Shown in pieces: positions 14,776 through 60,689 of a stretch of 64,000 nucleotides of DNA. Made by a program: the position numbers and the translations under genes. Source of the stretch: Microgenomates group bacterium (GTDB lineage Bacteria; Patescibacteriota; Microgenomatia; Daviesbacterales; UBA10151); NCBI GenBank assembly GCA_041659805.1, contig JBAZXP010000001.1:880224-944223 (forward strand). The letters run 5' to 3'. How positions within the stretch are numbered: position 1 is the first letter of the stretch; each line of letters starts with the position of its first letter. The notes under the pieces are model-generated. The model was not told the origin of the DNA. It did not search any database and saw only the letters and a program-made list of their open reading frames with translations.

Positions 14776-16737
<1,962 letters not shown>

Positions 16738-18796: not shown

Positions 18797-19592
18797 TTAG
18801 AATAACTTTTTTGAGTCCTCCCGGAAGAGGATTCCCCAAAAACTGCTCAACCAAAAGCTGCACTCTATCTGGAGCATCAGTCACATAAATTTCAAGGCTA
18901 CCCTTAACTGGTTCATTATTCAATAATTCTTTTTCTTTTAAAATTGATTTTAAAGTTTCAGCTGTTGGATGAGCAGAATCAACTACTATCACATCGCTAC
19001 CTACCTCTTTTTGAATGGTGTTTAGCAAAAGAGGGTAGTGTGTACAACCTAAAATTAAAATATCTAGTGCTGCATTTTTAAATTCAGCCAAATATTCCCT
19101 GGCCAGAAGTTCTGTTGCAGGATGATCACCCAAACCCTCTTCAGCAATTGGCACAAATAAAGGACAACTTGCCGTAATAACATTAGATTCTGGATTTTTA
19201 TTTTTAATTTCTGTTTCATAAACCTTACTGCCAATTGTAGCCCTGGTTCCGATTACGCCAATCGTATTACCTTTACTTTTTCGAAGAGCATAATCAACAG
19301 TCGGATCAATCACACCTAAAACAGGTACTGGAGAAACCTCGATAATTTTATCCAAACAAACAGCAGAGATAGTATTACAAGCAACTACCAAAAACTTCAC
19401 TTTTTTGGAAAGCAAAAAATCTACCATTTCCAAGGCAAATTTTGTAATTACTTCTTTGCCTCTGGTCCCGTACGGGACACGGGCAGTATCACCTAGATAA
19501 GTAATATCTTCATGAGGCAAAGCTTTAACTATTTCTTTTACTACAGTTAAGCCGCCAATACCTGAATCAAGTACACCGATTGAACCTTGCAT
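18786..19592 (-). CDS. murI: glutamate racemase
   Basis: MQGSIGVLDSGIGGLTV...YLGDTARVPYG...GCTHYP. The start is set at the internal Met; the track ORF extends to 19670. Confidence 0.85.
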   Translation of the reverse strand: MQGSIGVLDSGIGGLTVVKEIVKALPHEDITYLGDTARVPYGTRGKEVITKFALEMVDFLLSKKVKFLVVACNTISAVCLDKIIEVSPVPVLGVIDPTVDYALRKSKGNTIGVIGTRATIGSKVYETEIKNKNPESNVITASCPLFVPIAEEGLGDHPATELLAREYLAEFKNAALDILILGCTHYPLLLNTIQKEVGSDVIVVDSAHPTAETLKSILKEKELLNNEPVKGSLEIYVTDAPDRVQLLVEQFLGNPLPGGLKKVILTNL

Positions 19593-19633
19593 AGTGTTGT
19601 TAATTTTAACAGATTTGTCTAAAATATATCCAT

Positions 19634-20992
19634 ATGACGGATTTACACACAGAAGACAACACCCAGACAAGATTCAAAGGGAAAAAAGTATTGATTTTAG
19701 GATTGGGAGTCAACCAAGGTGGAGTAGGGGCAACCAAGTTTTTCGTTAAAGCAGGGGCGCAAGTAAAAGTAACAGATATCAAAAACAAAGAAAGCTTAGC
19801 CAGCTCACTGCAAGAATTGGAAGAATTTGCAGGAATAGAATACACTCTTGGAGAACATAAATACGAAGATCTCGATTGGGCGGATCTAATTATTAAAAAC
19901 CCAGCCATTAAACCTGACAATCCATACCTGTTATATGCTATAAATCATGATAAACAAATTGAGATGGACATGGGTATTTTCCTACAACTCGTGTCTCCGG
20001 CTCAACTCATAGGGATAACCGGCACTAAAGGAAAATCAACTACTTCTACTCTAATTTACGAAATCCTGAAAAAATCTAATGATAATGTAATATTTGCAGG
20101 AAATATCGGTAAAAGCATCCTCGATACAGTCCCAATAATGAATGCTGAGAGTACAATTGTTCTGGAGTTATCTTCTTTTCAGCTGGAAGCTTTTGCCTTA
20201 CATCACATCTCACCTCATATTGCAGTCATAACAAATATTTTTCCAGACCACTTAAATTATTACAATACGATAGAAGAGTACATTGAAGCCAAAAGATTAA
20301 TTGCTAGAGAACAAGAATTAACTGATTATTTAGTTCTCCGCAAAAATGATACTATTACCAGCTCTCCTCATTTTCAAAACAATTTGGTGGGTAAAATAAT
20401 TTATTTTTCTCCTGAGGATTTACCTTCAGATATTCAACTCAAAATACCTGGAGAATACAATCTTTATAATGCTGCAGCAGCACTCGCAGTTGCAAAAATC
20501 CAAGGAATAGATGAAAAAGATGCCCTAGATACAATCAAGAACTTTAGTGGAGTAGAGTATCGGCTGCAATTGGTAAAAGAAACAAATGGTATAAAAATTT
20601 ATAATGATTCAGCCTCAACCATGCCTGAATCTGCAATTTGGGCAATTAAAAGCCTTAAAAATAGCATCATGATTTGTGGTGGAATGAATAAAAATCTGAA
20701 TTACAAGGAAATGGCAGGAGCATTAGCCTCTGACGCCAAAATGATTTATTTTATTGACGGCGATGCAACAGATGAAATAAAAAAACAGCTATCAGCCATC
20801 AGTCCTCAGTCGTCAGACAAGATAAAAGGGACGTATAGCGATTTAGAAAAACTTCTGACTGATGTAAAAGCAGTTGCAAAACCAGGAGATACTATTGTAT
20901 TTTCACCCGGCGCAACTTCTTTTAATTTCTTTCAAAATGAGTTTGACAGAGCCCGTAGATTTAACACTGCTGTTGAAAAAGTCTTTGGTTAA
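19634..20992 (+). CDS. murD: UDP-N-acetylmuramoylalanine--D-glutamate ligase
   Basis: KVLILGLGVNQGGVGATKF...GITGTKGKSTTSTLI Mur ligase motifs. Confidence 0.8.
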   Translation: MTDLHTEDNTQTRFKGKKVLILGLGVNQGGVGATKFFVKAGAQVKVTDIKNKESLASSLQELEEFAGIEYTLGEHKYEDLDWADLIIKNPAIKPDNPYLLYAINHDKQIEMDMGIFLQLVSPAQLIGITGTKGKSTTSTLIYEILKKSNDNVIFAGNIGKSILDTVPIMNAESTIVLELSSFQLEAFALHHISPHIAVITNIFPDHLNYYNTIEEYIEAKRLIAREQELTDYLVLRKNDTITSSPHFQNNLVGKIIYFSPEDLPSDIQLKIPGEYNLYNAAAALAVAKIQGIDEKDALDTIKNFSGVEYRLQLVKETNGIKIYNDSASTMPESAIWAIKSLKNSIMICGGMNKNLNYKEMAGALASDAKMIYFIDGDATDEIKKQLSAISPQSSDKIKGTYSDLEKLLTDVKAVAKPGDTIVFSPGATSFNFFQNEFDRARRFNTAVEKVFG

Positions 20993-23952: not shown

Positions 23953-26544
23953 ATGTCTAATATAGGTAAAATAGAATTAACCCCAATTGTAGAAGAGATG
24001 CGCAGGTCATACCTTGACTATGCCATGTCTGTTATTGTTTCCCGTGCTTTGCCTGATGTACGAGATGGCTTAAAGCCTGTGCAAAGAAGAATAATCTTTG
24101 TTATGTATGAGCTAGGCCTTTTACATTCTTCAACTTTTAGAAAATGTGCCAAAATTGCAGGTGACACTTCTGGAAATTACCATCCACACGGTGAATCAAA
24201 TGTTTATGGCGCTTTGGTAAATTTAGTGCAGGACTTTTCCATGCGTTATCCATTAATTGACGGTCAGGGAAACTTTGGTTCAGTTGATGGAGACATGCCT
24301 GCTGCCATGAGGTACACTGAAGCGCGTTTGGCAAATATTTCTGAGGAAATGCTCAGAGATATTAACAAAGGTACTGTTGATTTTATTCCAAACTATGACC
24401 AAACAAAAAATGAACCAACAGTTTTACCTGCAGGAATTCCAAATTTATTACTTAATGGTGCGTCAGGTATTGCTGTTGGTATGGCAACTCAAATTCCACC
24501 TCATAATTTAGGAGAGTTAATTAATGCATTGACTTTCATGATTGATCATCCAGTAAAGCCAGAGGTTCAGCAAAAGTCAGCAAATCAGCAAATCAGCACG
24601 TCAGCGGATCAGCAGGAAAAAGACACTAATTCTGCCGATACTCCGACACTCCGACCTACTGACATTCAGATTCCAGCTGAAACTACTGGAAAATTCCGCT
24701 CAGAAGCCACGGTTGAAGATTTATTAGAATTTGTAAAAGGCCCTGATTTTCCAACAGGTGGATCAATTTATGATCAATCAGAAATTATTAATGCTTATGC
24801 AACTGGTAAGGGCAGAATTGTAATGAGGGCTAAAGCAGAAATTGAAGAAGCCAAAAATGGCAGATTTGATATTATCGTGACAGAACTTCCATACCAGGTT
24901 AATAAGGCAACCTTAATCACCAGAATTGCAGAATTACACAAAGACAAAAAAATAGAAGGAATTTCAGATCTCCGGGATGAATCAGATAGAAGGGGAATGA
25001 GGATTGTAATGGAGTTAAAGCGCGATGCAAAGCCCCAATCTCTACTTAATAACCTTTATAAACACACCTCAATGCAGTCAGTTTTTAATGTAAATATGGT
25101 GGCTTTAGTTGATGGAGTACCTCATTTACTACCACTCAAATATATTCTGGAAGAATTTATCACCCACAGACAAATTATTGTCAGGCGTAGATCAGAGTTT
25201 GAATTAGCAGAAGCCAGAGCCCGTGAACATATCCTGGAAGGGTTAAAAATTGCTGTTGATAATATTGATGAGGTTATTGCCACAATCAGAAAAAGCAAGG
25301 ATGCAGATGACGCCAAGACTAATTTGATGACCAAATTTAAGCTAAGTGACTTGCAAGCTCAGGCAATTTTGGACATGCAACTGCGCAGGTTGGCAGCCTT
25401 GGAAAGACAAAAAATTGAAGATGAGCTTAAGATGGTTCGCGAAACCATTGCCTACTTAGTAGACCTCTTGGCACATCCTGAAAAAATACTGGGAGTTATC
25501 AAAGATGAACTGGCAAAAATTAAGGATAAATTTGCAGACGAGAGAAAAACCCGCGTTTACAAACAAAAAATTGGCGAATTCTCTGAAGAAGATTTAGTGG
25601 CAGATGAACAAACAATAGTAACAATCACTGAAGGAGGTTATATTAAAAGACAACCACCTTCAACTTTTAGAATACAAAATAGGGGAGGAAAGGGTGTTTC
25701 TGGTATTACTACCAAAGAAGAAGATGCAGTTTCCCATATTTTCTACACCAAAACATTAGATAATATTTTGTTCTTTACAGATAAGGGTAGGGTTTTCCAA
25801 ATGAAGGTCTGGGAGATACCAGAAGCCTCCAGAATAGCCAAAGGGCAGGCGATTGTTAATTTAATTAACATTGAGCAAGGAGAAAAAATTACTGCTATTT
25901 TAACGCTCCGACAAAAAGATTCAACTAAATACTTATTCATGTGTACTAAATTCGGTAATGTTAAGAAAACAGAAATAGGAGAATACTCTTCTATTCGGAA
26001 AAATGGTTTAATTTCCATTAAACTGGACGAAAACGACGAGCTGGGATGGGTAAATCCGACAACAGGGGAAGACGAGATGATTATTGTGTCCCGTGATGGT
26101 CAATCAATCAGGTTTAGTGAACACGATGTCAGATCTACACACAGAGATACTGCCGGGGTTAGAGGAGTGAAGCTAAATAAAGGAGATACTGTTGTTTCAG
26201 CTCAAAAGATTGATGATCCAAAATCAGATACAGTTTTAGTGGTTATGGCAAATGGCTTAGGCAAAAAAACCATGATCGCCAATTGGACCAGACAAATTAG
26301 AGGAGGAATGGGTGTTAAAGCAGCCCAGGTAACAGAGAAGACAGGCCCAATTATGACAGCCCAGATTGTTGAAAAAGGCGTTGATACATTGGTGCTTACT
26401 TCTAACAAAGGTCAGATTATTAAATTAAATTTAAATGATGTTCCAACACTTCAAAGACAAACTCAGGGGGTAATCCTCATGAGAATGCGGGAAGGTGAAA
26501 AAGTAGCTGCAGCAGCTATTGTTTCATCCAAGGAAAAAGAGTAA
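23953..26544 (+). CDS. gyrA: DNA gyrase subunit A, with an in-frame low-complexity insertion
   Basis: LPDVRDGLKPVQRRI...QIPPHNL...GPDFPTGG and C-terminal beta-pinwheel repeats. There is a ~45-aa Q/S/T/D-rich insertion between IDHP and VEDLLEFVKGPDFPTGG. Confidence 0.95.
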   Translation: MSNIGKIELTPIVEEMRRSYLDYAMSVIVSRALPDVRDGLKPVQRRIIFVMYELGLLHSSTFRKCAKIAGDTSGNYHPHGESNVYGALVNLVQDFSMRYPLIDGQGNFGSVDGDMPAAMRYTEARLANISEEMLRDINKGTVDFIPNYDQTKNEPTVLPAGIPNLLLNGASGIAVGMATQIPPHNLGELINALTFMIDHPVKPEVQQKSANQQISTSADQQEKDTNSADTPTLRPTDIQIPAETTGKFRSEATVEDLLEFVKGPDFPTGGSIYDQSEIINAYATGKGRIVMRAKAEIEEAKNGRFDIIVTELPYQVNKATLITRIAELHKDKKIEGISDLRDESDRRGMRIVMELKRDAKPQSLLNNLYKHTSMQSVFNVNMVALVDGVPHLLPLKYILEEFITHRQIIVRRRSEFELAEARAREHILEGLKIAVDNIDEVIATIRKSKDADDAKTNLMTKFKLSDLQAQAILDMQLRRLAALERQKIEDELKMVRETIAYLVDLLAHPEKILGVIKDELAKIKDKFADERKTRVYKQKIGEFSEEDLVADEQTIVTITEGGYIKRQPPSTFRIQNRGGKGVSGITTKEEDAVSHIFYTKTLDNILFFTDKGRVFQMKVWEIPEASRIAKGQAIVNLINIEQGEKITAILTLRQKDSTKYLFMCTKFGNVKKTEIGEYSSIRKNGLISIKLDENDELGWVNPTTGEDEMIIVSRDGQSIRFSEHDVRSTHRDTAGVRGVKLNKGDTVVSAQKIDDPKSDTVLVVMANGLGKKTMIANWTRQIRGGMGVKAAQVTEKTGPIMTAQIVEKGVDTLVLTSNKGQIIKLNLNDVPTLQRQTQGVILMRMREGEKVAAAAIVSSKEKE

Positions 26545-27682: not shown

Positions 27683-28381
27683 TTAGCGTCTTGCCAAAGA
27701 AATAAAACCCAGGAAAGTTAAAACCCCACCGACTGCAATCAACATTAGAGTAGTATTTAAATCCGCGGTACCGGGTAGCGGCGCAGCTGGGGCTCTTGTA
27801 ATCGGAGCTTCTGTTATAGTTGCAGAAGGTGTTGATATTGGCGCTCCTGTACCGCTACAAGCTCCGGTACCGATAACAAAATTACCATTAACAACCTGAT
27901 TTAAAGTTTCTGCCATAGTTCCTACTTCTACAACATTCGAATCAGTGGTTTTGCTTTTATCATTTGCATCGAAATCGAATTTAATTTGAGTTGCCCCTAC
28001 AGGTGCGGTTTCCAGGACTGTAAAATCAACTGTTGCTAATGTTCCTGAGCCTTTATAGGAAGAAGTCGCAGACGCTAAACCTGAAACTAAAACAGTTCCG
28101 GTAGCTGTATCAATGTTGTTACCGGGGTAATCAGGATAAATACTGCCATTATTTATTTTATTTGCAATAAAGCGGGTTGTATCGTAATTTAAAATCACAT
28201 CTGTGCCTGCAGTATCATAACCACCGGTATCCAGTAAAATCTGCAAAGAAAACTTACAATTTTTGTTAAATGTCCCAGTAGCAGGGGAGAGTGAAAGAGT
28301 AGACCCAGCAGCAAACACCACAGCAGGACTCGTAAAAAGAACGCTTATTATGCTTAAGATTGTTAAAATTACTTTTTTCAT
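27683..28381 (-). CDS. cohesin-like domain protein with a C-terminal LPXTG-type (LPGTA) sorting signal
   Basis: Signal peptide. A cohesin-like beta-sandwich segment (DVILNYDTTRF...GTLATVDFTVLETAPVGATQIKFDF). C-terminus LPGTAD + hydrophobic stretch + ARR. Confidence 0.6.
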   Translation of the reverse strand: MKKVILTILSIISVLFTSPAVVFAAGSTLSLSPATGTFNKNCKFSLQILLDTGGYDTAGTDVILNYDTTRFIANKINNGSIYPDYPGNNIDTATGTVLVSGLASATSSYKGSGTLATVDFTVLETAPVGATQIKFDFDANDKSKTTDSNVVEVGTMAETLNQVVNGNFVIGTGACSGTGAPISTPSATITEAPITRAPAAPLPGTADLNTTLMLIAVGGVLTFLGFISLARR

Positions 28382-29007
28382 TGAGTTATTGTTATATCCA
28401 GGTTTTTAACTTCCTCCAAGACATCATCAGAAGTTTTACTGTCAATTAGGTTTGTATCGTTTGTTCTTTTGGGCGCAAACTCAAGAAAAATCTTAGCTTT
28501 CCCTGCAGCCTTAGCCTGAAAAATAATTGTACCAAATAACCCCTTGGGTACAACTCCTCCAACTTTATTGGTAATTCCTGAAACTGTAATAACTCCGTTT
28601 TTTTCATCAACAGAATTAATAGGGTATTCATCATAAAGATTTCCCAAACTAACAGGAGTTTTTGATGCGTTTGAGGCTAAACTCAAAAGGTTGGCATCAT
28701 AATGAATAATCAAATCTGCGCCGGCCGTCATTTTGTTTGAATCTATATTTATTCCGATCGGCACAACCTCACCAATTTTAAATTGAGTTTTAGGTGAGGT
28801 TAAAGAAATAGTATTTGAGTTCCCAGTTTGTGCCACAGAGGTAGATGTTGAGGTTGCGGTTGGTTGGTTTTGGTTCTGTTTGTTAATTGCCTGATAAGCC
28901 CAAACCCCTTCAGCACCTATTATAATCACAACCAAAATTATTAAATAAATTGGCTTAATATTGCTTAGTATTGATGATATTTTTGTTTGTATATTGGACA
29001 GGTCCAT
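28378..29007 (-). CDS. cohesin-like domain protein with an N-terminal membrane anchor
   Basis: N-terminal TM (IYLIILVVIIIGAEGVWAY), a Q/N/T/S linker, then ADLIIHYDANLL...GTIIFQAKAAGKAKIFLEF, which is cohesin-like. Confidence 0.55.
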   Translation of the reverse strand: MDLSNIQTKISSILSNIKPIYLIILVVIIIGAEGVWAYQAINKQNQNQPTATSTSTSVAQTGNSNTISLTSPKTQFKIGEVVPIGINIDSNKMTAGADLIIHYDANLLSLASNASKTPVSLGNLYDEYPINSVDEKNGVITVSGITNKVGGVVPKGLFGTIIFQAKAAGKAKIFLEFAPKRTNDTNLIDSKTSDDVLEEVKNLDITITQ

Positions 29008-29070
29008 TAAATAAAAATCCTTACTTTAATTGAATCACAAAGGGTTGTCTTCTGTCTAGTTTTATCATAT

Positions 29071-29340
29071 TTATTGTGTTGCTGCTGAAGTCGATTCTGG
29101 TGCAGGAGGACCAAGAGGAGAACGCAGTTCAACGGTTAAAGCAGTTGAGCTGGTTGTTCTTTTATCAGGACTAACATTATCTCCTGTAAATGTAATTGGA
29201 TCTGCTGCTGCTTTTGACCTTAGGAACTGTTGCTCTGAAGCTAATTTTACTCCGACAGGAATTACCAGCACCATAATTCCGATAATCAACAGGGTTATAA
29301 TATTTTTCTTATTTAATGTGCGTGTATTATTCTCGTCCAT
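29071..29340 (-). CDS. truncated paralog of the 31879..32583 product (shares the N-terminal TM + QQFLRSKAA..ITF signal)
   Basis: 89 aa that align with the first ~90 aa of the 234-aa protein. It may be a gene fragment. Confidence 0.4.
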   Translation of the reverse strand: MDENNTRTLNKKNIITLLIIGIMVLVIPVGVKLASEQQFLRSKAAADPITFTGDNVSPDKRTTSSTALTVELRSPLGPPAPESTSAATQ

Positions 29341-29342
29341 AT

Positions 29343-31877
29343 TTAATCTCCACTCTTATTATAATTATTTTGTAAGCAAGAGTAATCAACAGAGTTAACC
29401 CTACCATCATTATTTAAATCACCAGGTCTGGTAACATCAGAATTAATTGCCCATTCTCTGGACATCTCACCTTTATCAAAAGCATTAACTTTATTATCAG
29501 GGGAGGAAACTGGATAGATATCTCCTACGTATAGAACAATTTCACCCAGATTAGTCGTTCCTTCTTCTGCCACAAACTCAACTCTTCTACTGACAGTTTT
29601 AGGAGCTTTAAGACTCAACACATAAGTTTTTCCGATTTCAATACCAGGTGTAAAATCAACAGGTTTACCTTCTTTATCAATTTTAATCTTTTTATTAATC
29701 AGGGATTTAGCACCTTCAACCTTTTCTTTGATATCAACCGCTACATTATCCATTGATAAATCACCGCCAGAAGCCAAACAAGTAGTTTTCTCTGTAAAAT
29801 CGACTGTTGTCAGGTCCAGTGAACAATAACCATTTACCACAGTACCATCATCCAAAGTGAGCACAATTTGATGACGACCTCCGGTTAGTTTCTCATTCAC
29901 ACTGGATCTAATCTCATACCTGGTATCATTGTTTGCTCGGACAGCACCAGACTGAGTTGCAGACCCAGAAGAAGTTGTTTCCCTCCCCAAAGCTATCCAG
30001 GAACTAATATTTGCCCGCTTACCTTCAACGCTAATATTCCCAGAACCTTGTTCATCGTGTGGTCCAATATTTATACCTCTGACGTTCACCAATGTTCCGG
30101 TTCCTAAAGGATTAAATGTGCAGGTTGCTGAAGTAACTCTTGGTTGACCACCAATATATTTAATACTTTTTGTAACAACAGGACTTTTATTGCCTTTATT
30201 ATCTCTAAACTGACAAAACAGGTTCAAATTTCCACCAGGGACAACGTTATAAGTAAACTCATAATTAAATAATATAGGGGCGCCAGATCCATCTTGATTC
30301 CTGTACGTCTTCCATTGTGGGGCGCTTGAACCAGCATCATCCTTATCAAAACTTTGTTCTGAACACCTGTAATCCGTGGTATAGGTAGGAATTGTAGGAG
30401 TTGGCGGAGGAGGAGTAGGAGTAGGAGTAACATAAGTAATTTGACGTTGGCTAACTTCACTGGTGGTAGTCTGATCAGATTTTTTAAACTGAACAAATAC
30501 AGTATAAACTTTTCCTCCTACAGGATTGGATAGGGTATGACCAAAGAGTGTTAAAGTATCACTGCCGCCTGCAGGAGAATATGATCTCCAGGGATATGAA
30601 GCGTTTTCAGGATCTCCACCATTAAAAGGCACATCAACAGAATAGCGGTATTGGTAAGTTCTGTCGGTGGAAGATGGGGGATTTGTGACTGTAGGAGCAT
30701 CATTCCTTACAATGATTGTTTTTACACTAGAGCCCCCGCAAGAAGTAACATTACCCGTATTCCCTGGGATACCAGTACCACAATCTATACAATTTATGCC
30801 CGCAGGACAACTCGTAGCCGAAAATGACCATTTACAAAAAGCGTTGCCTGAACATGATATTCTGGCTGAACCATTTACCTCTGAGCTATGTGAAGTTATA
30901 AAAGGACCTACATAATATGTACCTGCAATAGTTGGGGTAAACCCACCTGAAAATGAACCGGAATTAGGGCCAGACCTTCTGTCTGCAGAGTTTGTTAAGT
31001 CTGCAGGCACTGCGCTTACATTACAATAGATATTATTACTACCGCCACCCTCCAAATTACTTGTAGGACAACCTGTCGTATCTCTATTTTGGCGACTCCA
31101 AAAAAGTTTGGTGCTTGCTAACCCTCCGGGAACATTACCCCCATTAACATCAACCCTAAAATCAAGCCTTGTACCAGGACGGACATTATTCGGATCAACA
31201 CCAGAGGTAGTAAGGTTCACTACTGCTGAAATTGGACCTGAACCATCAGTGCTACCTGGAGCAGCATTAGCATCTCTAGAAAACCAAACGTGATTCCATC
31301 TACAATTACCCCAATCGTCTGTAGATGATGTAGGTTTCCTAATAGCTTTAATTTCTATAGACTGGTCATTAGAAGGTGTTGCAAAAGTTCCTTGCTGAAT
31401 AGGAATTCCACAATCGTTACCTAAATTATCAGTCAGTTTATGAAACCATTTGGTTAACTTAAAATTAGGATCATCAACATGTATTGACACTCTTGTTGGT
31501 ACACCATCCGCTGTACCCAAAGGAATACTTATACGTTCAAAAGTATAAAAAGGCTCATCATGGACAAAAGTACTACCTTTTCCAGAAGGGTCAGGGTTAC
31601 AGCCACTTGAAAATGAATCACCATCAGTTCCTTGACTCCAAGTCACCTTATAAGTTGGACCGCCTTGACAAGAAAGGCCTCCGCAAGAACCGCCAATTAT
31701 TTTTCTTTGGTTAGGACAACTACCATAAAGTGATGAATCCTCATCTGTCACTTCACCAAGTAAAACAGCTCCCTCTCGTGAACCGTTCCAAACAGCTGAT
31801 GCTTTTTGGGCAGAAAAAACAAAACAGACTGTTAATATTAAGCTAAATAAATATGTAAATACTTTAATTTTTTTCAT
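29343..31877 (-). CDS. large secreted cysteine-rich protein with a C-terminal dockerin-like Ca-binding repeat
   Basis: Sec signal peptide (…SAQKASA|V), a PTPTPPPPTPT linker, and C-terminal GDLNNDGRVNSVDYSCLQNNY, which matches the dockerin repeat consensus. Confidence 0.6.
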   Translation of the reverse strand: MKKIKVFTYLFSLILTVCFVFSAQKASAVWNGSREGAVLLGEVTDEDSSLYGSCPNQRKIIGGSCGGLSCQGGPTYKVTWSQGTDGDSFSSGCNPDPSGKGSTFVHDEPFYTFERISIPLGTADGVPTRVSIHVDDPNFKLTKWFHKLTDNLGNDCGIPIQQGTFATPSNDQSIEIKAIRKPTSSTDDWGNCRWNHVWFSRDANAAPGSTDGSGPISAVVNLTTSGVDPNNVRPGTRLDFRVDVNGGNVPGGLASTKLFWSRQNRDTTGCPTSNLEGGGSNNIYCNVSAVPADLTNSADRRSGPNSGSFSGGFTPTIAGTYYVGPFITSHSSEVNGSARISCSGNAFCKWSFSATSCPAGINCIDCGTGIPGNTGNVTSCGGSSVKTIIVRNDAPTVTNPPSSTDRTYQYRYSVDVPFNGGDPENASYPWRSYSPAGGSDTLTLFGHTLSNPVGGKVYTVFVQFKKSDQTTTSEVSQRQITYVTPTPTPPPPTPTIPTYTTDYRCSEQSFDKDDAGSSAPQWKTYRNQDGSGAPILFNYEFTYNVVPGGNLNLFCQFRDNKGNKSPVVTKSIKYIGGQPRVTSATCTFNPLGTGTLVNVRGINIGPHDEQGSGNISVEGKRANISSWIALGRETTSSGSATQSGAVRANNDTRYEIRSSVNEKLTGGRHQIVLTLDDGTVVNGYCSLDLTTVDFTEKTTCLASGGDLSMDNVAVDIKEKVEGAKSLINKKIKIDKEGKPVDFTPGIEIGKTYVLSLKAPKTVSRRVEFVAEEGTTNLGEIVLYVGDIYPVSSPDNKVNAFDKGEMSREWAINSDVTRPGDLNNDGRVNSVDYSCLQNNYNKSGD

Positions 31878-31878
31878 C

Positions 31879-32583
31879 TTAGTGCTGTGGCGGTACCGTC
31901 AATAAATCGTTCGGCCCACAACGTGGGTTTTGCGGAATAGTAGCAACCGGATTACCAGTACAATAAACCATACCATTAAGTGTCTGTGCGTTAGCTACAA
32001 TGTAATAACGTTGACTATCATTTGGGTATACCCATGTACCAGAAGCTGTACATGTACTGGCTCCGCCACAATCATTATTAACCGCTACCTGAGTCCAGGA
32101 ACTTGCCAGTGTTAAATTAGATGCTTGATTAGCTACATATACCCATGCTTTTCTGAGATTTACTCCTGTTGCAGTAGTGGTATATGTATTATTTGGTCCG
32201 GAAGATACAGAAGCAGAAAGTCCTGGAAACGGAGAAGGAGAAATTGGAGCTGAAGTTGGTACTTGTGTCACACTAGCTGTGGGTACTGTGGTAGTAGTTG
32301 GATTTGCTGTCGCAGTAGGGGTTACAGAACCGGGTTCTCCATATGGGCCAAAAGGAGAATGAAAAGCTATATCTACATTAGGCGAAGTAGTTCTACAACC
32401 GCTAGTATCACAAGTAACGCCTGTCCCACCAAAAGTAATTGCCTCACCTGCAGCCCTGGAGCGAAGTCTTTGTTGCTGTTGAACTAAATAAACGCTTAGA
32501 GGAACTGCTACAACTACTAAGATTAAAACAACAGCAGCTATGATATTTCTTCGAGTTAAAAAGGATTTTATAGAGTCATTCAT
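31879..32583 (-). CDS. surface protein with a conserved N-terminal TM + QQQQRLRSRAAGEAITF motif, a T/P-rich linker and a Cys-containing C-terminal domain
   Basis: First gene of the cohesin/dockerin operon. It is a paralog of the 89-aa product. Confidence 0.55.
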   Translation of the reverse strand: MNDSIKSFLTRRNIIAAVVLILVVVAVPLSVYLVQQQQRLRSRAAGEAITFGGTGVTCDTSGCRTTSPNVDIAFHSPFGPYGEPGSVTPTATANPTTTTVPTASVTQVPTSAPISPSPFPGLSASVSSGPNNTYTTTATGVNLRKAWVYVANQASNLTLASSWTQVAVNNDCGGASTCTASGTWVYPNDSQRYYIVANAQTLNGMVYCTGNPVATIPQNPRCGPNDLLTVPPQH

Positions 32584-32635
32584 GTAAAGTAGGGCATTAG
32601 ATCCAGATTAGAGCAAAAGGACAACGATTGTCAAG

Positions 32636-32772
32636 CACAGTTCAGCAAATCAGCAGTTCAGCAAATCGGCAAATTCAGCGAGTCAGCAAGACAGAATGTC
32701 AAATGAGTGGTTTATATTGTACGACAAGACATCAGTAGATCAGCATGTCGGCGAATCGGCAAATTCAGCAGA
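32636..32772. repeat. iteron-like degenerate direct repeats (cagcaaatc[a/g]gcaaattcagcgagtcagcaag family) in a divergent promoter region
   Basis: At least five tandem or dispersed copies are visible. Inverted copies lie at 33163-33203 and 33961-34030, and a related copy inside gyrA at 24568-24616. Confidence 0.6.
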
Positions 32773-32801
32773 GTAATAGATCTGATAATATATAAATTAG
32801 C

Positions 32802-33152
32802 ATGATAAAAGATGTGACAGATTTGGAGGTTTACAAAGAATCAATGTATTTGTTGCATGAAGTAAATACTTTAACAAGTTTAATCTCACAAACAGAAAAG
32901 GATTTGATCTCGCAGATTAAAAGAGCCTCGAGATCTATTCCTGCAAACTTAGCAGAAGGGTTTGCAAAAAAATCTTCTACAAAGGAATTTAAGCGCTACC
33001 TGATGATCTCCTTAGGCTCAAGCGATGAACTTATAACTCATTTCAGGGTCTTAATAATAATTAATCCAGGTTTACAAAGTCAGTCCGAAGATATTTTAAA
33101 AAAATACCAAATTTTATCTAAAAGACTTAACGTCCTATACCACAAATGGTAG
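32802..33152 (+). CDS. four-helix-bundle protein of the 23S rRNA intervening-sequence / DGR Avd (accessory variability determinant) family
   Basis: SQIKRASRSIPANLAEGFAKKSSTKEFKRYLMISLGSSDEL matches the family signature (SQ..RAa.Si..NIAEG..r.s..ef..fl.iA.GS..E). Confidence 0.75.
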   Translation: MIKDVTDLEVYKESMYLLHEVNTLTSLISQTEKDLISQIKRASRSIPANLAEGFAKKSSTKEFKRYLMISLGSSDELITHFRVLIIINPGLQSQSEDILKKYQILSKRLNVLYHKW

Positions 33153-34031
33153 TTTTTATTAATACTGACTCGCTGAAACTCCGATCTCCCGATACTCTGA
33201 AGCTCCGTAGCCACGAGACCCTAGAAGGCCCCTAAAACGGCCGGAAAGCAGGGAAGTGGTATGGTAAGCTATCTAAAGATTAGGTTGTCCTAAAGCCCCA
33301 AACTCATTAGAGGCAAAACATAAGTAAGACGAAAAATTAGTGGACAAATTATCAGGAAAAAGTGGCAAAAATAGCACGAATAAAACCGGCTTAAAAATCT
33401 ATAAAAAAATCATTCATGCGCAAATTTATGGATTTATACCTCTTCCCTTAAGCGTGTGTCCGTCGTCGCATAAGATACATTGTACGACTAGATAATTGGG
33501 AAGTATAATCAAAATGCATATTCCCGGGAGTGGAGTTAAACATACACTAAGAGAGGGGCGTGCTTCTGTTCCTCTTAACCAGTCCTTGCCATAGATATGA
33601 ACAGAAGCTATTTACTCTCTCCTCCATTCATGTAGATCCTCTTTTTTCACGCGTGAAAACTCAATTAGCACTAACTATATCATTTTGACAGTATTAGCCT
33701 CAAAACAGAGTACTCTACCCTCAAAAATATTAAAGAAAATTGCTATTTTTTGAGGCTAAATCGAAGCTAAAAATTAAACCCAGAAGAGTACTATACCCTA
33801 TAGTTTTAGCTTCAAAGTTATCCACAGTTTATTCTCTATCTGTATCAAACTATATCAACTATACTACCCTATAGTTTTTATGTTCGGGTTTTGTTCAATA
33901 CTATCAAACTATATCATTTAAACCTAAAATCACCATTTCTCTCTCCTCCACTTTCTTTCTGATTTTGCCGATTCTCTGATACTTCGACTCTTGCTGATTC
34001 TCTGACCCCGCCGATACCCCGATATTCTGAA
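33153..34031. other. ~880-bp ORF-free region rich in repeats and stem-loops; possible ncRNA or decayed element
   Basis: No ORF of 60 aa or more in any frame. Stem-loops at 33719-33755 and 33763-33813. Direct repeats aactatatca (x3), taccctatagttttt (x2) and agagtact[c/a]taccct (x2). Terminal inverted copies of the 32636-32772 repeat family. Confidence 0.4.
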
Positions 34032-34871
34032 CTATCCTGTCCAGGAAGTTGTGATTAATGCAATTAAAAATATTCCCAATCCAAATCCAAGAAATAACCA
34101 AATATCTACTTCGGTAATCCTCTCTTTCAAAGTATGAGTCGCTATCCCCAATGTTACATAAAGTCCTGTTGAAACAATTAAGGATGACATTGGCTTGGCA
34201 ATCGGCCAAAACGACAGAGCAATTGCCATCTCCCCTATTATTAAGGCTAAAACAGCTGAGTAAACTAAAATAAAAGCACTTATACCCTCCATATCCAGAG
34301 ACCAAATCACCTGTAAAATTAATGGAAATCCAATTAAAAATACCGCTAACCCATTCCAAATAAAAAATAAATTTAAAGAAAATACTACGTTGAACAACAT
34401 AAAAGCAGTTATAAGAGTTAGCACGAAAACCGTTGTTGAAGCCACTCTATATAAAGGAATAGTTCTGATGGAAGCCACATTAAACACATTTTGTGAAAGT
34501 AGCAAAGTATAAAAAACTAGGCCAAAGGCAAAAGCCACTGGTAATCTGGTAAGCCATCTGACCGGCAAAAGAAAATAATAGCTGGCAACAGCCAAAGTAA
34601 ATGCCATCGGGAGTATCATTAATATAATTGCTTTCAAGCTATTTAAACCTTCCCATAAAGCCCAAATTGATAGGACAAAGGAAAGTAATGCTAACCCTAC
34701 AATAAAGCGGTTTGTTAAAAAAACCGGCACTAATTGGGTTGATAAAAGCCCCAAGGAAAGTATGATAGAAACTAAAATAATTTTATGCCTTTTTTCAAAA
34801 GATAATTTCTCACGGGTTAGGGTAAGGAATATTTTTATTAGAAAATCACTGAATCTAAAAATTAAATTCAT
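34032..34871 (-). CDS. polytopic membrane protein (hypothetical)
   Basis: About 8 TM helices. Co-oriented and overlapping with ruvC (4 nt). Confidence 0.5.
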   Translation of the reverse strand: MNLIFRFSDFLIKIFLTLTREKLSFEKRHKIILVSIILSLGLLSTQLVPVFLTNRFIVGLALLSFVLSIWALWEGLNSLKAIILMILPMAFTLAVASYYFLLPVRWLTRLPVAFAFGLVFYTLLLSQNVFNVASIRTIPLYRVASTTVFVLTLITAFMLFNVVFSLNLFFIWNGLAVFLIGFPLILQVIWSLDMEGISAFILVYSAVLALIIGEMAIALSFWPIAKPMSSLIVSTGLYVTLGIATHTLKERITEVDIWLFLGFGLGIFLIALITTSWTG

Positions 34872-55872: not shown

Positions 55873-56661
55873 ATGTATAATTTAAAATTTAAAATTAATA
55901 ATTTCAGGAAAATAATAATTATTTTTGTTTTCTCATTCTTCATTCTTCATTCTTCATTCTTCATTCCCAAAGCTTTTGCTGCAGATTCCTCACCCAGCGC
56001 TGACATAAAAGAAAAGCTCAAACTCCTGCAAGAAGAAATTGCCTCACGAGCTGCAAACATTAAAAATGAAGTCAGTAAAAAACTTTTGAACAAAGCTTAT
56101 ATTGGAGAAATTACAACAAAAGATACAACTTCATTAACTGTAAACCTGAAATCAGGCCCAGGAAATATAACCATAAATGAATTTACTGAATATATTATTA
56201 AATCAAAAACATATACAGGAGATGCAGGATTGAAAAATCTGAATATTTCAGATTTCATTGCTGCTTTAGGAGACGCTGATGATAAAGGAGTTGTAACTGC
56301 CAAACAAATCGTTAAAATCACCAAACCAAACCCTAAAAAGATTGTTTATGGAATTTTAATAACTGTTGGCAAAGACTCAACCACTTTAAAAACCAACCAA
56401 AACGATCAGTTTTCAATAAATTTTGATAAAAATACTGATTATCAATTAAATAGCGTAGACAGCAGTTTTAAAGAAATTAAAGAAAACAGATGGATTATTG
56501 TAGTGGGAGAAGAAATTAAACCAGTTGAAAACAAAGCTAGCACGGTCTCTGCAACTCCTGCACCTCCCCCTGTTCTTTTGGCAAAATTCGTCTATATTTT
56601 CCCGAGTGGTATTACACCCAAACCTAAAGCTTCTACTCCCTCAACTACTATAAAACCTTAA
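55873..56661 (+). CDS. secreted hypothetical protein with a signal peptide
   Basis: MYNLKFKINNFRKIIIIFVFSFFILHSSFFIPKAFA|ADSS. The signal-peptide codons contain a heptanucleotide tandem repeat. Confidence 0.5.
   Translation: MYNLKFKINNFRKIIIIFVFSFFILHSSFFIPKAFAADSSPSADIKEKLKLLQEEIASRAANIKNEVSKKLLNKAYIGEITTKDTTSLTVNLKSGPGNITINEFTEYIIKSKTYTGDAGLKNLNISDFIAALGDADDKGVVTAKQIVKITKPNPKKIVYGILITVGKDSTTLKTNQNDQFSINFDKNTDYQLNSVDSSFKEIKENRWIIVVGEEIKPVENKASTVSATPAPPPVLLAKFVYIFPSGITPKPKASTPSTTIKP
55930..55967. repeat. heptanucleotide tandem repeat (CATTCTT)x4.7 inside a coding sequence
   Basis: ttctCATTCTTCATTCTTCATTCTTCATTCTTCATTCcc, read directly from the sequence. Confidence 0.8.
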
Positions 56662-60638: not shown

Positions 60639-60689
60639 ACTAGCTTTCAGTCTTCAGCCATCAGTCTTCAGACTATGTATAATTAACCT

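Follow-up and report, generated by a model that had tools for sequence, protein, structure and literature searches.

The gyrA Gene and Its In-Frame Insertion

The DNA studied here is a stretch of 64,000 nucleotides (nt) from a Microgenomates group bacterium (assembly GCA_041659805.1, contig JBAZXP010000001.1, positions 880,224 to 944,223 of the forward strand), called "the window" in what follows; it carries gyrA, the gene for DNA gyrase subunit A, in which a low-complexity segment of 50 amino acids (aa) is encoded by short DNA repeats. The repeat survey covered this window, that is, 64 kb of a genome of 1.13 Mb. The gene and the parts of its insert are as follows:

23953–26544, + strand: gyrA, 863 aa (open reading frame (ORF) and translation; PF00521 and PF03989; matches to GyrA chains of the PDB down to E 3.7e-164)
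24553–24702, + strand: in-frame insertion of 50 aa, VKPEVQQKSANQQISTSADQQEKDTNSADTPTLRPTDIQIPAETTGKFRS, aa 201–250 of the product (two-stretch alignment to solved GyrA/ParC)
24550–24616, + strand: (+) arm, eight phased YCAG units (Tandem Repeats Finder (TRF), TCAGC clustering, autocorrelation)
24635–24662, − strand: (−) arm, four units of the same family, TCAGTAGG TCGGAGTG TCGGAGTA TCGG... (pattern matches 24635–24654 and 24643–24662; chain of four, period 8)
24663–24702, + strand: right edge, a CCAGCTGA palindrome and the conserved ...GKFRS anchor (closes the predicted hairpin with the left edge)

Judged from its sequence, the 23953–26544 product is GyrA and not ParC, every hallmark of membership being found: a topoisomerase IIA A-subunit domain (PF00521) with the catalytic Tyr of GyrA (AAMRYTE, in AAMRYTEARL), a C-terminal beta-pinwheel (PF03989) with the GyrA box QNRGGKG (FRIQNRGGKGVSG) in the translation, a best structural match to B. 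subtilis GyrA (4ddq, E 3.7e-164), and a gyrB partner in the same window, at 14782–16737, whose product is 95% identical to the GyrB of the related locus L001. The ORF product is a 100% match to P0001, "DNA gyrase subunit A, Microgenomates group bacterium", and its nearest relatives are Candidatus Daviesbacteria.

The bounds of the insertion come from a phmmer search of GyrA against all PDB chains, which matched 48 GyrA/ParC sequences; all 48 alignments are broken into two stretches around the insertion. With B. subtilis 4ddq, residues 10–200 of the query align with 12–202 and residues 251–516 with 203–468, so that the insertion is exactly aa 201–250, between B. subtilis residues 202 and 203. 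The original prediction of an in-frame low-complexity insertion in GyrA was, thus, right, the peptide and the DNA that it quoted being in place; its figures (about 45 aa, 24565–24710) have to be replaced by those given here. The site lies where the helix after the GIAVGMATQIPPHNL strand ends; in E. coli GyrA it would presumably fall at about 201/202, which we take to be about 27 residues past the DNA-bending Ile (I174). In an AlphaFold2 model built on a 98-sequence alignment, the predicted local distance difference test (pLDDT) is below 50 for residues 204–245, with block means of about 29 and no secondary structure, between helices 186–198 and 254–258; the insertion is predicted to be a disordered loop, and its nearness to the DNA gate, proposed earlier, is conjectural. 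Residues 201–250 are presumably translated, as the conservation of the frame suggests.

Repeat Anatomy of the Insert

TRF detects two period-8 arrays in the insert, at 24567–24614 (5.8 copies, consensus TCAGCAAA) and at 24635–24655 (CCGACACT, 2.6 copies). Read by its YCAG core, the (+) arm begins right at the insertion junction and runs through the units CCAGTAAAG CCAGAGGT TCAGCAAAAG TCAGCAAA TCAGCAAA TCAGCACG TCAGCGGA TCAGCAGG; it holds six clustered TCAGC at spacings of 10, 8, 8, 8 and 8 nt, and its strongest autocorrelation is at lag 8. This arm stands in the stop-free TCAG orientation, and in the (−) arm the single unit with YGA in frame, the lone one in the stop-prone frame, has CGA (Arg) and not TGA. 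A "ctccgacactccgac" duplication had been described in the insert, and it is present, but a simple direct expansion it is not, as the same family recurs on the opposite strand (TCGGAGTG TCGGAGTA): with matches on both the (+) and the (−) strand, the insert is an inverted pair of arrays and, hence, an imperfect palindrome. A period of 8 is not a multiple of 3; the unit is, therefore, read in all three frames, which gives the S/A/N/Q/I-rich peptide QQKSANQQISTSADQQ.

RNA folding of the insert yields one imperfect hairpin (z −1.7 to −1.9), closed by a CCAG...CTGG stem; AAGCCA, the only direct repeat at its flanks, does not keep the register of the frame and is missing in L001. The fold z-scores of nine array-bearing loops average about −2.1, the weakest being −0.9 and the strongest −4.3 (L144); two array-free loops score −1.2 and −0.4.

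That the insert belongs to the same repeat family as a stretch at 32636–32772, as had been claimed, is confirmed by several measures. TRF reports at 32642–32689 an array whose consensus, TCAGCAAA, is identical to that of the gyrA array; where 0.05 matches to the 13-mer CAGCAAATCAGCA (at most one mismatch) would be expected, the window has four, half of them in gyrA and half at 32643 and 32659; and the pattern TCRGN4TCRGN4TCRG has 13 window matches against 0.01 expected, all of them in gyrA (plus strand 24577–24612, minus strand 24635–24662) or in 32642–34030, where the plus-strand matches lie on the left and the minus-strand ones on the right. The latter region holds a PF05635 gene, with whose flanks the gyrA loop has 12 9-mers in common (about 0.4 expected, by our own estimate); the loop of L212 has 13. 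A second copy of the whole gyrA insert was found neither in the 64 kb nor in the related loci; only the unit family recurs (32636–34030, 60647, 20792).

The PF05635 Locus and Its Flanking Arrays

The stretch at 32636–32772 does share the repeat family of the gyrA insert, but it is not an isolated intergenic repeat: it flanks a gene for a "23S rRNA intervening-sequence (IVS) protein" in the following arrangement:

32636–32770, + strand: two (+) TCRG octamer arrays, 32642–32689 and 32732–32768, with a TTTATATTGTACGACAA motif between them (TRF, pattern matches, chains)
32802–33152, + strand: PF05635 gene, for a four-helix-bundle or "23S rRNA intervening-sequence protein" (Pfam match with E 2.6e-22, its 79.5 bits exceeding the cutoff of 33.8)
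33165–33200, − strand: (−) TCRG octamer array right after the PF05635 gene (pattern matches, chain)
33950–34030, − strand: outer (−) TCRG array, complementary to the upstream (+) arrays (inverted repeats of 80–86%; chain 33994–34030)

The array at 33165–33200 includes a 13-nt perfect inverted repeat with 32674–32686, and the outer (−) array closes a unit of about 1.4 kb in which the PF05635 gene and a conserved non-coding stretch lie, with the same layout in L213. The succession of (+) arrays, PF05635 gene and (−) arrays is found in the window, L146, L213, L204, L208, L215, L216, and L217; inverted TCRG/YCRG flanks are present at eight of the nine Microgenomates PF05635 genes examined, the exception, in L213, having another inverted repeat. 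The upstream array and its TTTATATTGTACGACAA motif have homologues in L001, L146, L213, L215, and L217, and several PF05635 loci are preceded by a TATAAT-ATTGTGCGACA motif. The protein itself has 501 homologues, the majority on contigs of 1–3 kb; the neighbours of its (Avd-like) gene code for DUF5656, RuvC, an unknown 233-aa protein and a dockerin protein.

Directly before (+) arrays (window 32710–32727; L146 18365–18380; L215 1–15; L217 885–900), and once more within the conserved non-coding stretch (window 33476–33490), there is a conserved (TATA)ATATTGTRCGACA motif, which looks like a −10 element with a transcription start. The ORF-free stretch of about 770 nt between the two (−) arrays (window 33200–33970) is 73% identical to L001 19346–20121, and its first 90 nt or so (CCGTAGCCACGAGACCCTAGAAGGCCCCTAAAACGGCC...) recur beside PF05635 genes in L003, L146, L213, L215, and L217; it could be an RNA not described so far, or a transcript that is processed. 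Rfam has no match in 32500–34100, even at E<=1 (over the whole window it matches a tRNA only), and a covariation test on the conserved block after PF05635, with five sequences, gave a positive, that is, unsupportive, term. This region was also considered as a replication origin and rejected: from 32.6 to 34.0 kb, there is one perfect DnaA box (33818), but DnaA boxes show no enrichment (23 against 20.7 expected), and the GC skew does not turn.

Other loci show what else can be found in such surroundings. In L001 (18768–19345), a GIY-YIG nuclease gene stands in place of the PF05635 cassette (window 32687–33201) and the first array is kept; this swap in a 94%-identical relative suggests that the locus is a hot spot of small mobile genes. 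In Daviesbacterium L204 (1253–2545; also in L205–L207), LAGLIDADG and PF05635 genes lie between 16S-like blocks, with CACCGCCCGTCA upstream and GGATCACCTCCTT downstream; the PF05635 gene has YCRG inverted flanks, the scaffold has a gap, and cmscan finds a small-subunit rRNA match at 1–954 only. Tentatively, this 16S-flanked segment looks like an rRNA intervening sequence. In Anaerolineae (L123, 3388–3975), a PF05635 gene lies between inverted arrays of another heptamer, GTAGACG/CGTCTAC; short-repeat inverted flanks may be a general trait of this gene family.

Distribution of the Insertion across GyrA

We measured loop length as the segment between IPPHNL and GPDFPT. This segment has 26 aa in about 55 distant, apparently non-CPR (Candidate Phyla Radiation) GyrA loci (43–48% identity), as it does in 103 of the 150 closest representatives of 50% clusters; 30 of these 150 have one to nine extra residues, and seven have unrelated insertions of 39–94 aa at the same site. 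In the 119 Daviesbacteria GyrA, the segment has 36–88 aa (10–62 residues extra). The insertion is, as had been proposed, restricted to a lineage. Six relatives at 60–71% identity (L128, L129, L132, L137, L138, and L185) have clean empty sites of the form HP-x-ATVE (x being E, D, S, or A); comparison of HP directly followed by EATVE with the HP[50 aa]EATVE of the window shows an in-frame insertion that is missing from some orthologues.

Ordered by neighbour-joining, the sequences have the insertion throughout the Daviesbacteria clade, with a hypervariable centre between edges that are kept, HPxK... at its left end and [KR][FY]xS at its right; in some subclades, its C-terminal part is now a conserved module of about 17 aa (LGQ[ST]VEELKQETYYQS; ESQGQWIDEQVQKGFRS). 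The insertion is, therefore, old and its centre unconstrained; some other Microgenomates, like Daviesbacteria, have an old insertion at this site. It follows that only a part of the claim of a repeat expanded within the gene can be kept: the repeat is there, but its expansion did not create the insertion, whose site is occupied in essentially all 119 Daviesbacteria. The arrays occupy only the hypervariable centre of this old insertion, and only in a few sublineages.

Conserved edges raise the question of an adaptive module, i.e., a selected flexible linker or an interaction or modification site (S/T/P/K/E-rich) that would tune gyrase in bacteria with such small genomes, the repeats being merely the means by which the loop is diversified. 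The clade-wide conservation of the edges, the 17-aa module of some subclades and the independent insertions of other lineages at the same site speak for it. We nevertheless find it improbable, as the centre of the loop in the clade of the window is conserved neither in sequence nor in length, even where the flanks are 97% identical; with a non-triplet period, it is not the peptide that is being copied; disorder is predicted for the loop; and relatives at about 60–71% identity do without the insertion.

Turnover of the Arrays among Orthologues

Length polymorphism among relatives had been put forward as a check, and it is indeed observed: the segment measures 76, 68, 61, and 60 aa in orthologues of 100, 94, 94, and 87% identity. 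Outside the loop, the GyrA of the window and that of L001 are 96.8% identical over 813 ungapped residues; their loops, of 50 and 42 residues, have only the edges in common. A DNA alignment of four gyrA orthologues gives the following arrays:

Window loop: (+) arm of one 10-nt and five 8-nt units, TCAGC core; (−) arm of period 8
L001 loop: (+) arm of four 8-nt units; (−) arm of period 9
L002 loop: (+) arm of three 10-nt units; (−) arm of period 9
L003 loop: (+) arm of four 7-nt units; no phased (−) chain found

All the loop variants examined are in frame and stop-free. In the loops of the more distant Daviesbacteria L212, L213, L214, and L146 (71–77% identity), there are 8-nt YCRG arrays whose position and frame are unchanged. 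Other units are found as well: the loops of L136 and L144 have GAGTCnn followed by nnGACTC, again in inverted order, and those of L133 and L134 have a direct GCAGTAA array. In loop DNA with arrays, lag 7 or 8 tops the autocorrelation. A test of peptide compatibility run on the 119 Daviesbacteria loops found period-8 TCRG chains of at least four units in three loops and of at least three units in five, against 1.1% of shuffles; with chains in so few of the 119 loops, the arrays are sporadic.

Such turnover could be the work of local microsatellite slippage from native seeds such as CCTGAAGC, in the least-constrained DNA of the gene; the likeness to the PF05635 flanks would then come from a mutational or compositional propensity of the whole genome, and from neither transfer nor descent from an element. 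Near-identical orthologues do differ in unit number and period, the unit-like CCTGAAGC is present in the empty site, unrelated 7-mer arrays occur in these genomes (one in a signal peptide, 55933–55966), arrays are missing from the majority of loops, and neither a second copy of the insert nor a target-site duplication was found in the searches reported here. One has to keep in mind, however, that slippage alone yields direct repeats only; the (+)-then-(−) order of YCRG units in the window, L001, L002 and, more weakly, L003, like that of GAGTC/GACTC in L136 and L144, therefore speaks against it. Moreover, exact 13-mers and the 12 common 9-mers tie the loop to the PF05635 flanks, and the TCAG/TCGG core is fixed where the other three or four positions vary, which is unlike neutral decay (a comparison to which ascertainment bias applies). 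We regard pure slippage as possible but doubtful.

Another alternative to a translated insertion is an artefact of assembly or gene calling, or a removable element (intein, intron or target of a diversity-generating retroelement (DGR)). Repeats are prone to mis-assembly, the PF05635 neighbour is Avd-like, and a true GyrA intein exists in relatives: that of P0040 has PF14528/PF14890 and lies elsewhere in GyrA. However, the identical protein is found in NCBI, JGI, ENA, and Logan assemblies, independent samples have yielded homologous loops with arrays, and the insert is always in frame and stop-free. An intein was rejected at this site, the insert being too small at 50 aa, predicted to be disordered and devoid of domain or splicing motifs. 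A DGR variable region was rejected too: no reverse-transcriptase Pfam match was found among the neighbours of the PF05635 gene, no template/variable pair was seen, and the repeats are tandem octamers, unlike such a pair. We, thus, give this explanation hardly any weight. The intein-bearing Daviesbacteria GyrA (P0040, 1280 aa; L133, L134), whose intein (PF14528/PF14527/PF14890) lies upstream of the loop, also have a 28-aa loop insertion of GCAGTAA heptamers.

Similar Arrays Elsewhere

At 60647–60671, between a stop codon and a TATGTATAAT box, the window has a heptamer TCAG array (TCAGTCT TCAGCCA TCAGTCT TCAGAC) that ends 19 nt before ATG 60690; the gyrA loop of L003 has nearly the same heptamers. 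In murD, four TCAG cores follow each other at a 7-nt phase (20792–20816, QLSAISPQSSDK); they were rejected as an insertion, the length being the same as in the MurD of L001. The TGCTGA repeat of gyrB (4.3 copies, 16307–16333) was likewise rejected as an opposite-strand repeat, as it encodes the conserved Toprim motif LMTDADVDG with no indel relative to L001; the likeness is a coincidence. In another ORF (ATG 55873 to 56661), a perfect TCATTCT array of 4.9 copies (55933–55966), immediately preceded by five copies of AAAATTT, lies in the hydrophobic core of the signal peptide FVFSFFILHSSFFIPKAFA; it is the second example of a repeat that its non-triplet period takes through three frames where the coding sequence is tolerant. 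Downstream of gyrA and xerC, at 27683–31877, lies a conserved cluster of proteins with cohesin and dockerin domains (Pfam matches in the syntenic L001 genes and in window 29343–31874), which is an unusual cell-surface machinery for a CPR bacterium.

Beyond the window, Rubrobacteraceae and Chloroflexota have intergenic (TCAGCnnn)n arrays followed by (nnnGCTGA)n, some right before a start codon; inverted TCAGC octamer loci were found in L037 (6763–6828), L070 (6796–6860), L017 (6802–7001), L046 (2334–2530), and L027 (2829–2982). As far as the loci collected indicate, inverted TCAGC octamer arrays are widespread outside CPR. A scan of genome contigs for (TCAGCN3)x4 found a PF05635 gene at two of 120 loci among the matches listed, in unrelated phyla, so that TCAGC arrays elsewhere are mostly not linked to an intervening-sequence protein. 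Finally, the 19.6 kb Daviesbacteria contig L212 has heptamer arrays at both ends (AGGCAAC at 1–30, CTGTAAC at 19572–19598); judged from these ends, heptamer arrays evidently break assemblies.

Comparison with Known Systems

rRNA intervening sequences with PF05635 ORFs, of the Leptospira/Coxiella type, are removed from the rRNA by excision of RNA and are not translated. What the gyrA insert has in common with them is its repeat family, of which the inverted flanks of PF05635 genes are made here, and it resembles a pair of arms without the ORF; unlike them, it has neither ORF nor rRNA context and lies in a protein gene. As the frame is kept and free of stops in every variant, the gyrA insert is presumably read through and not excised. 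It is conceivable, yet unlikely, that the YCRG arrays are working parts of a Microgenomates IVS-type family that colonises rRNA, intergenic DNA and even the essential gyrA, where it would persist as a translated "protein IVS"; the arrays would then serve as stems in the transcript or as periodic sites that the PF05635 four-helix-bundle protein or an RNase might bind.

Rickettsia palindromic elements (RPEs), which are among the closest analogues, are in-frame insertions in ORFs, and the gyrA insert appears to share several of their traits as PMC10969869 describes them (after Ogata et al. 2000): a palindromic repeat (in gyrA an imperfect one) of about 100–150 nt, in frame, in a housekeeping gene, presumably giving an extra surface peptide that the fold tolerates, with related copies in non-coding or RNA contexts. 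RPEs themselves all go back to one conserved consensus, whose copies are dispersed over dozens of genes and encode a conserved peptide there. The gyrA insert, in contrast, has no conserved full-length consensus, only phased units of 7–10 nt with a core of 4–5 nt; it occurs in one gene in 64 kb, and its content differs between near-identical strains. Apicoplast gyrases, encoded in a reduced AT-rich genome, also have lineage-specific low-complexity insertions (PMC4297366); these are, unlike the gyrA insert, of homopolymer or triplet type (Asn runs), at other positions and not inverted arrays.

Another close parallel is found in the TAACTGA (= TCAGTTA) heptamers of Beggiatoaceae, Cyanobacteria, and Bacteroidetes, which are mostly intergenic and near start codons, gain and lose whole units, and are occasionally found inside ORFs, one of them RNA polymerase beta'-like, where they keep to tolerant positions and to the stop-free TCAG orientation only (MacGregor 2015, PMC4679880). 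The arrays described here are like these and the cyanobacterial short tandemly repeated repetitive (STRR) heptamers in their tandem short units, their CTGA/TCAG core and their whole-unit indels between strains. TRF gives a period of 8, unit number and period differ among 94–95%-identical orthologues, and intergenic arrays stand before start codons (32642–32768 before ATG 32802; 60647–60671 before ATG 60690), as one expects of STRR-type repeats. They differ in that the units are mainly of 8 nt, the non-core bases vary, the arrays form inverted pairs, the host is a CPR taxon, and the arrays are tied to PF05635 flanks, whereas the words "intervening", "S23" and "helix bundle" do not occur in PMC4679880.

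RNA-binding regulators have been proposed for TAACTGA repeats (MacGregor 2015, PMC4679880), which brings in the possibility that the arrays are a functional nucleic-acid signal in gyrA, be it a hairpin for mRNA processing or regulation or a protein site made of YCRG octamers, the loop peptide being the price of keeping it. In keeping with this, the core is kept across three reading frames and in orthologues with differing peptides, and the PF05635 arrays, right after the TATAAT-ATTGTGCGACA motif and right after the stop codon, resemble transcribed 5' and 3' stems. We consider it quite unlikely all the same: arrays are missing from the majority of Daviesbacteria loops, and the insertion itself from some relatives, so that there is no conserved requirement; the fold z-scores are weak, and both binder and cleavage are hypothetical.

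In the literature, we found no description of the GyrA insertion or of the link between arrays and PF05635 genes. What sets the present case apart from the known analogues is that non-triplet octamers with a short conserved core are paired in inverted order, are linked to the flanks of PF05635 genes, and have only one host gene, which is essential.

Origin of the Insert

Our favoured explanation, to which we would grant about an even chance, is that the gyrA insert is an element-derived, translated passenger: a palindromic element of short tandem repeats, or the arms of one, lodged in a permissive loop. An old permissive GyrA loop of Daviesbacteria hosts short DNA repeats with a YCRG core and periods of 7–10 nt, which fill the centre of the loop and, in this lineage, also its left edge, (+) units first and (−) units next. 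The insert would descend from, or have exchanged sequence with, a palindromic IVS-type element of the kind that brackets PF05635 genes and rRNA intervening sequences; the arrays would then turn over by gain and loss of units (slippage), and selection would purge the variants that break the frame or create a stop, so that the frame and the freedom from stops would be what is maintained. Low complexity at the protein level would exist because there is a repeat at the nucleic-acid level, the peptide being a by-product. We infer the origin from, or exchange with, an IVS-type palindromic element, as well as the absence of a specific protein function of the loop; the insertion is probably passive and selfish-DNA-like, at a tolerant site. 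Descent from an element was favoured over pure slippage because of the inverted order, the shared units and the array-like left edge, and also because inverted GAGTC/GACTC 7-mer arrays are found in the same loop in other lineages.

Several points weigh against the descent of the insert from an element. Without a second full-length copy in the 64 kb and the related loci, mobility is unproven. No convincing target-site duplication was found around the insert, the sole candidate, AAGCCA, not fitting the frame; such a duplication may have been erased, as the insertion is ancient. The hairpin z-scores are individually weak, and the differing periods of the two arms in L001 and L002 make a long stem impossible there. 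The majority of Daviesbacteria loops have no recognisable array, so the arrays could be secondary colonists or have formed in situ, and the empty GyrA site already holds the unit-like CCTGAAGC. No genome-specific matching of 9-mers was seen between loop units and PF05635-flank units; concerted evolution of the two within a genome is, thus, unsupported by 9-mer sharing. The evidence, lastly, covers 64 kb of 1.13 Mb.

Significance

Should the arrays be only passive, the finding would be an RPE-like curiosity. Should they be working parts of an IVS-type family, their presence in the gyrA mRNA might link the expression of gyrase to the processing machinery of the element. A non-triplet nucleic-acid repeat can persist in an essential and highly conserved CPR enzyme, where it yields a strain-variable disordered loop; this calls for caution with alignments, phylogenies and gyrA-based markers in Patescibacteria. 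The permissive GyrA site (B. subtilis 202/203) takes from 0 to 94 extra residues, which is of use in engineering. The poorly understood PF05635 genes of Microgenomates are now tied to a defined structure (TATAAT-ATTGTGCGACA, (+) YCRG arrays, ORF, (−) arrays), and this structure is connected to the TCAG/CTGA heptamers of Beggiatoaceae, cyanobacteria, and Bacteroidetes, which gives a handle on how such elements spread and on what binds them.

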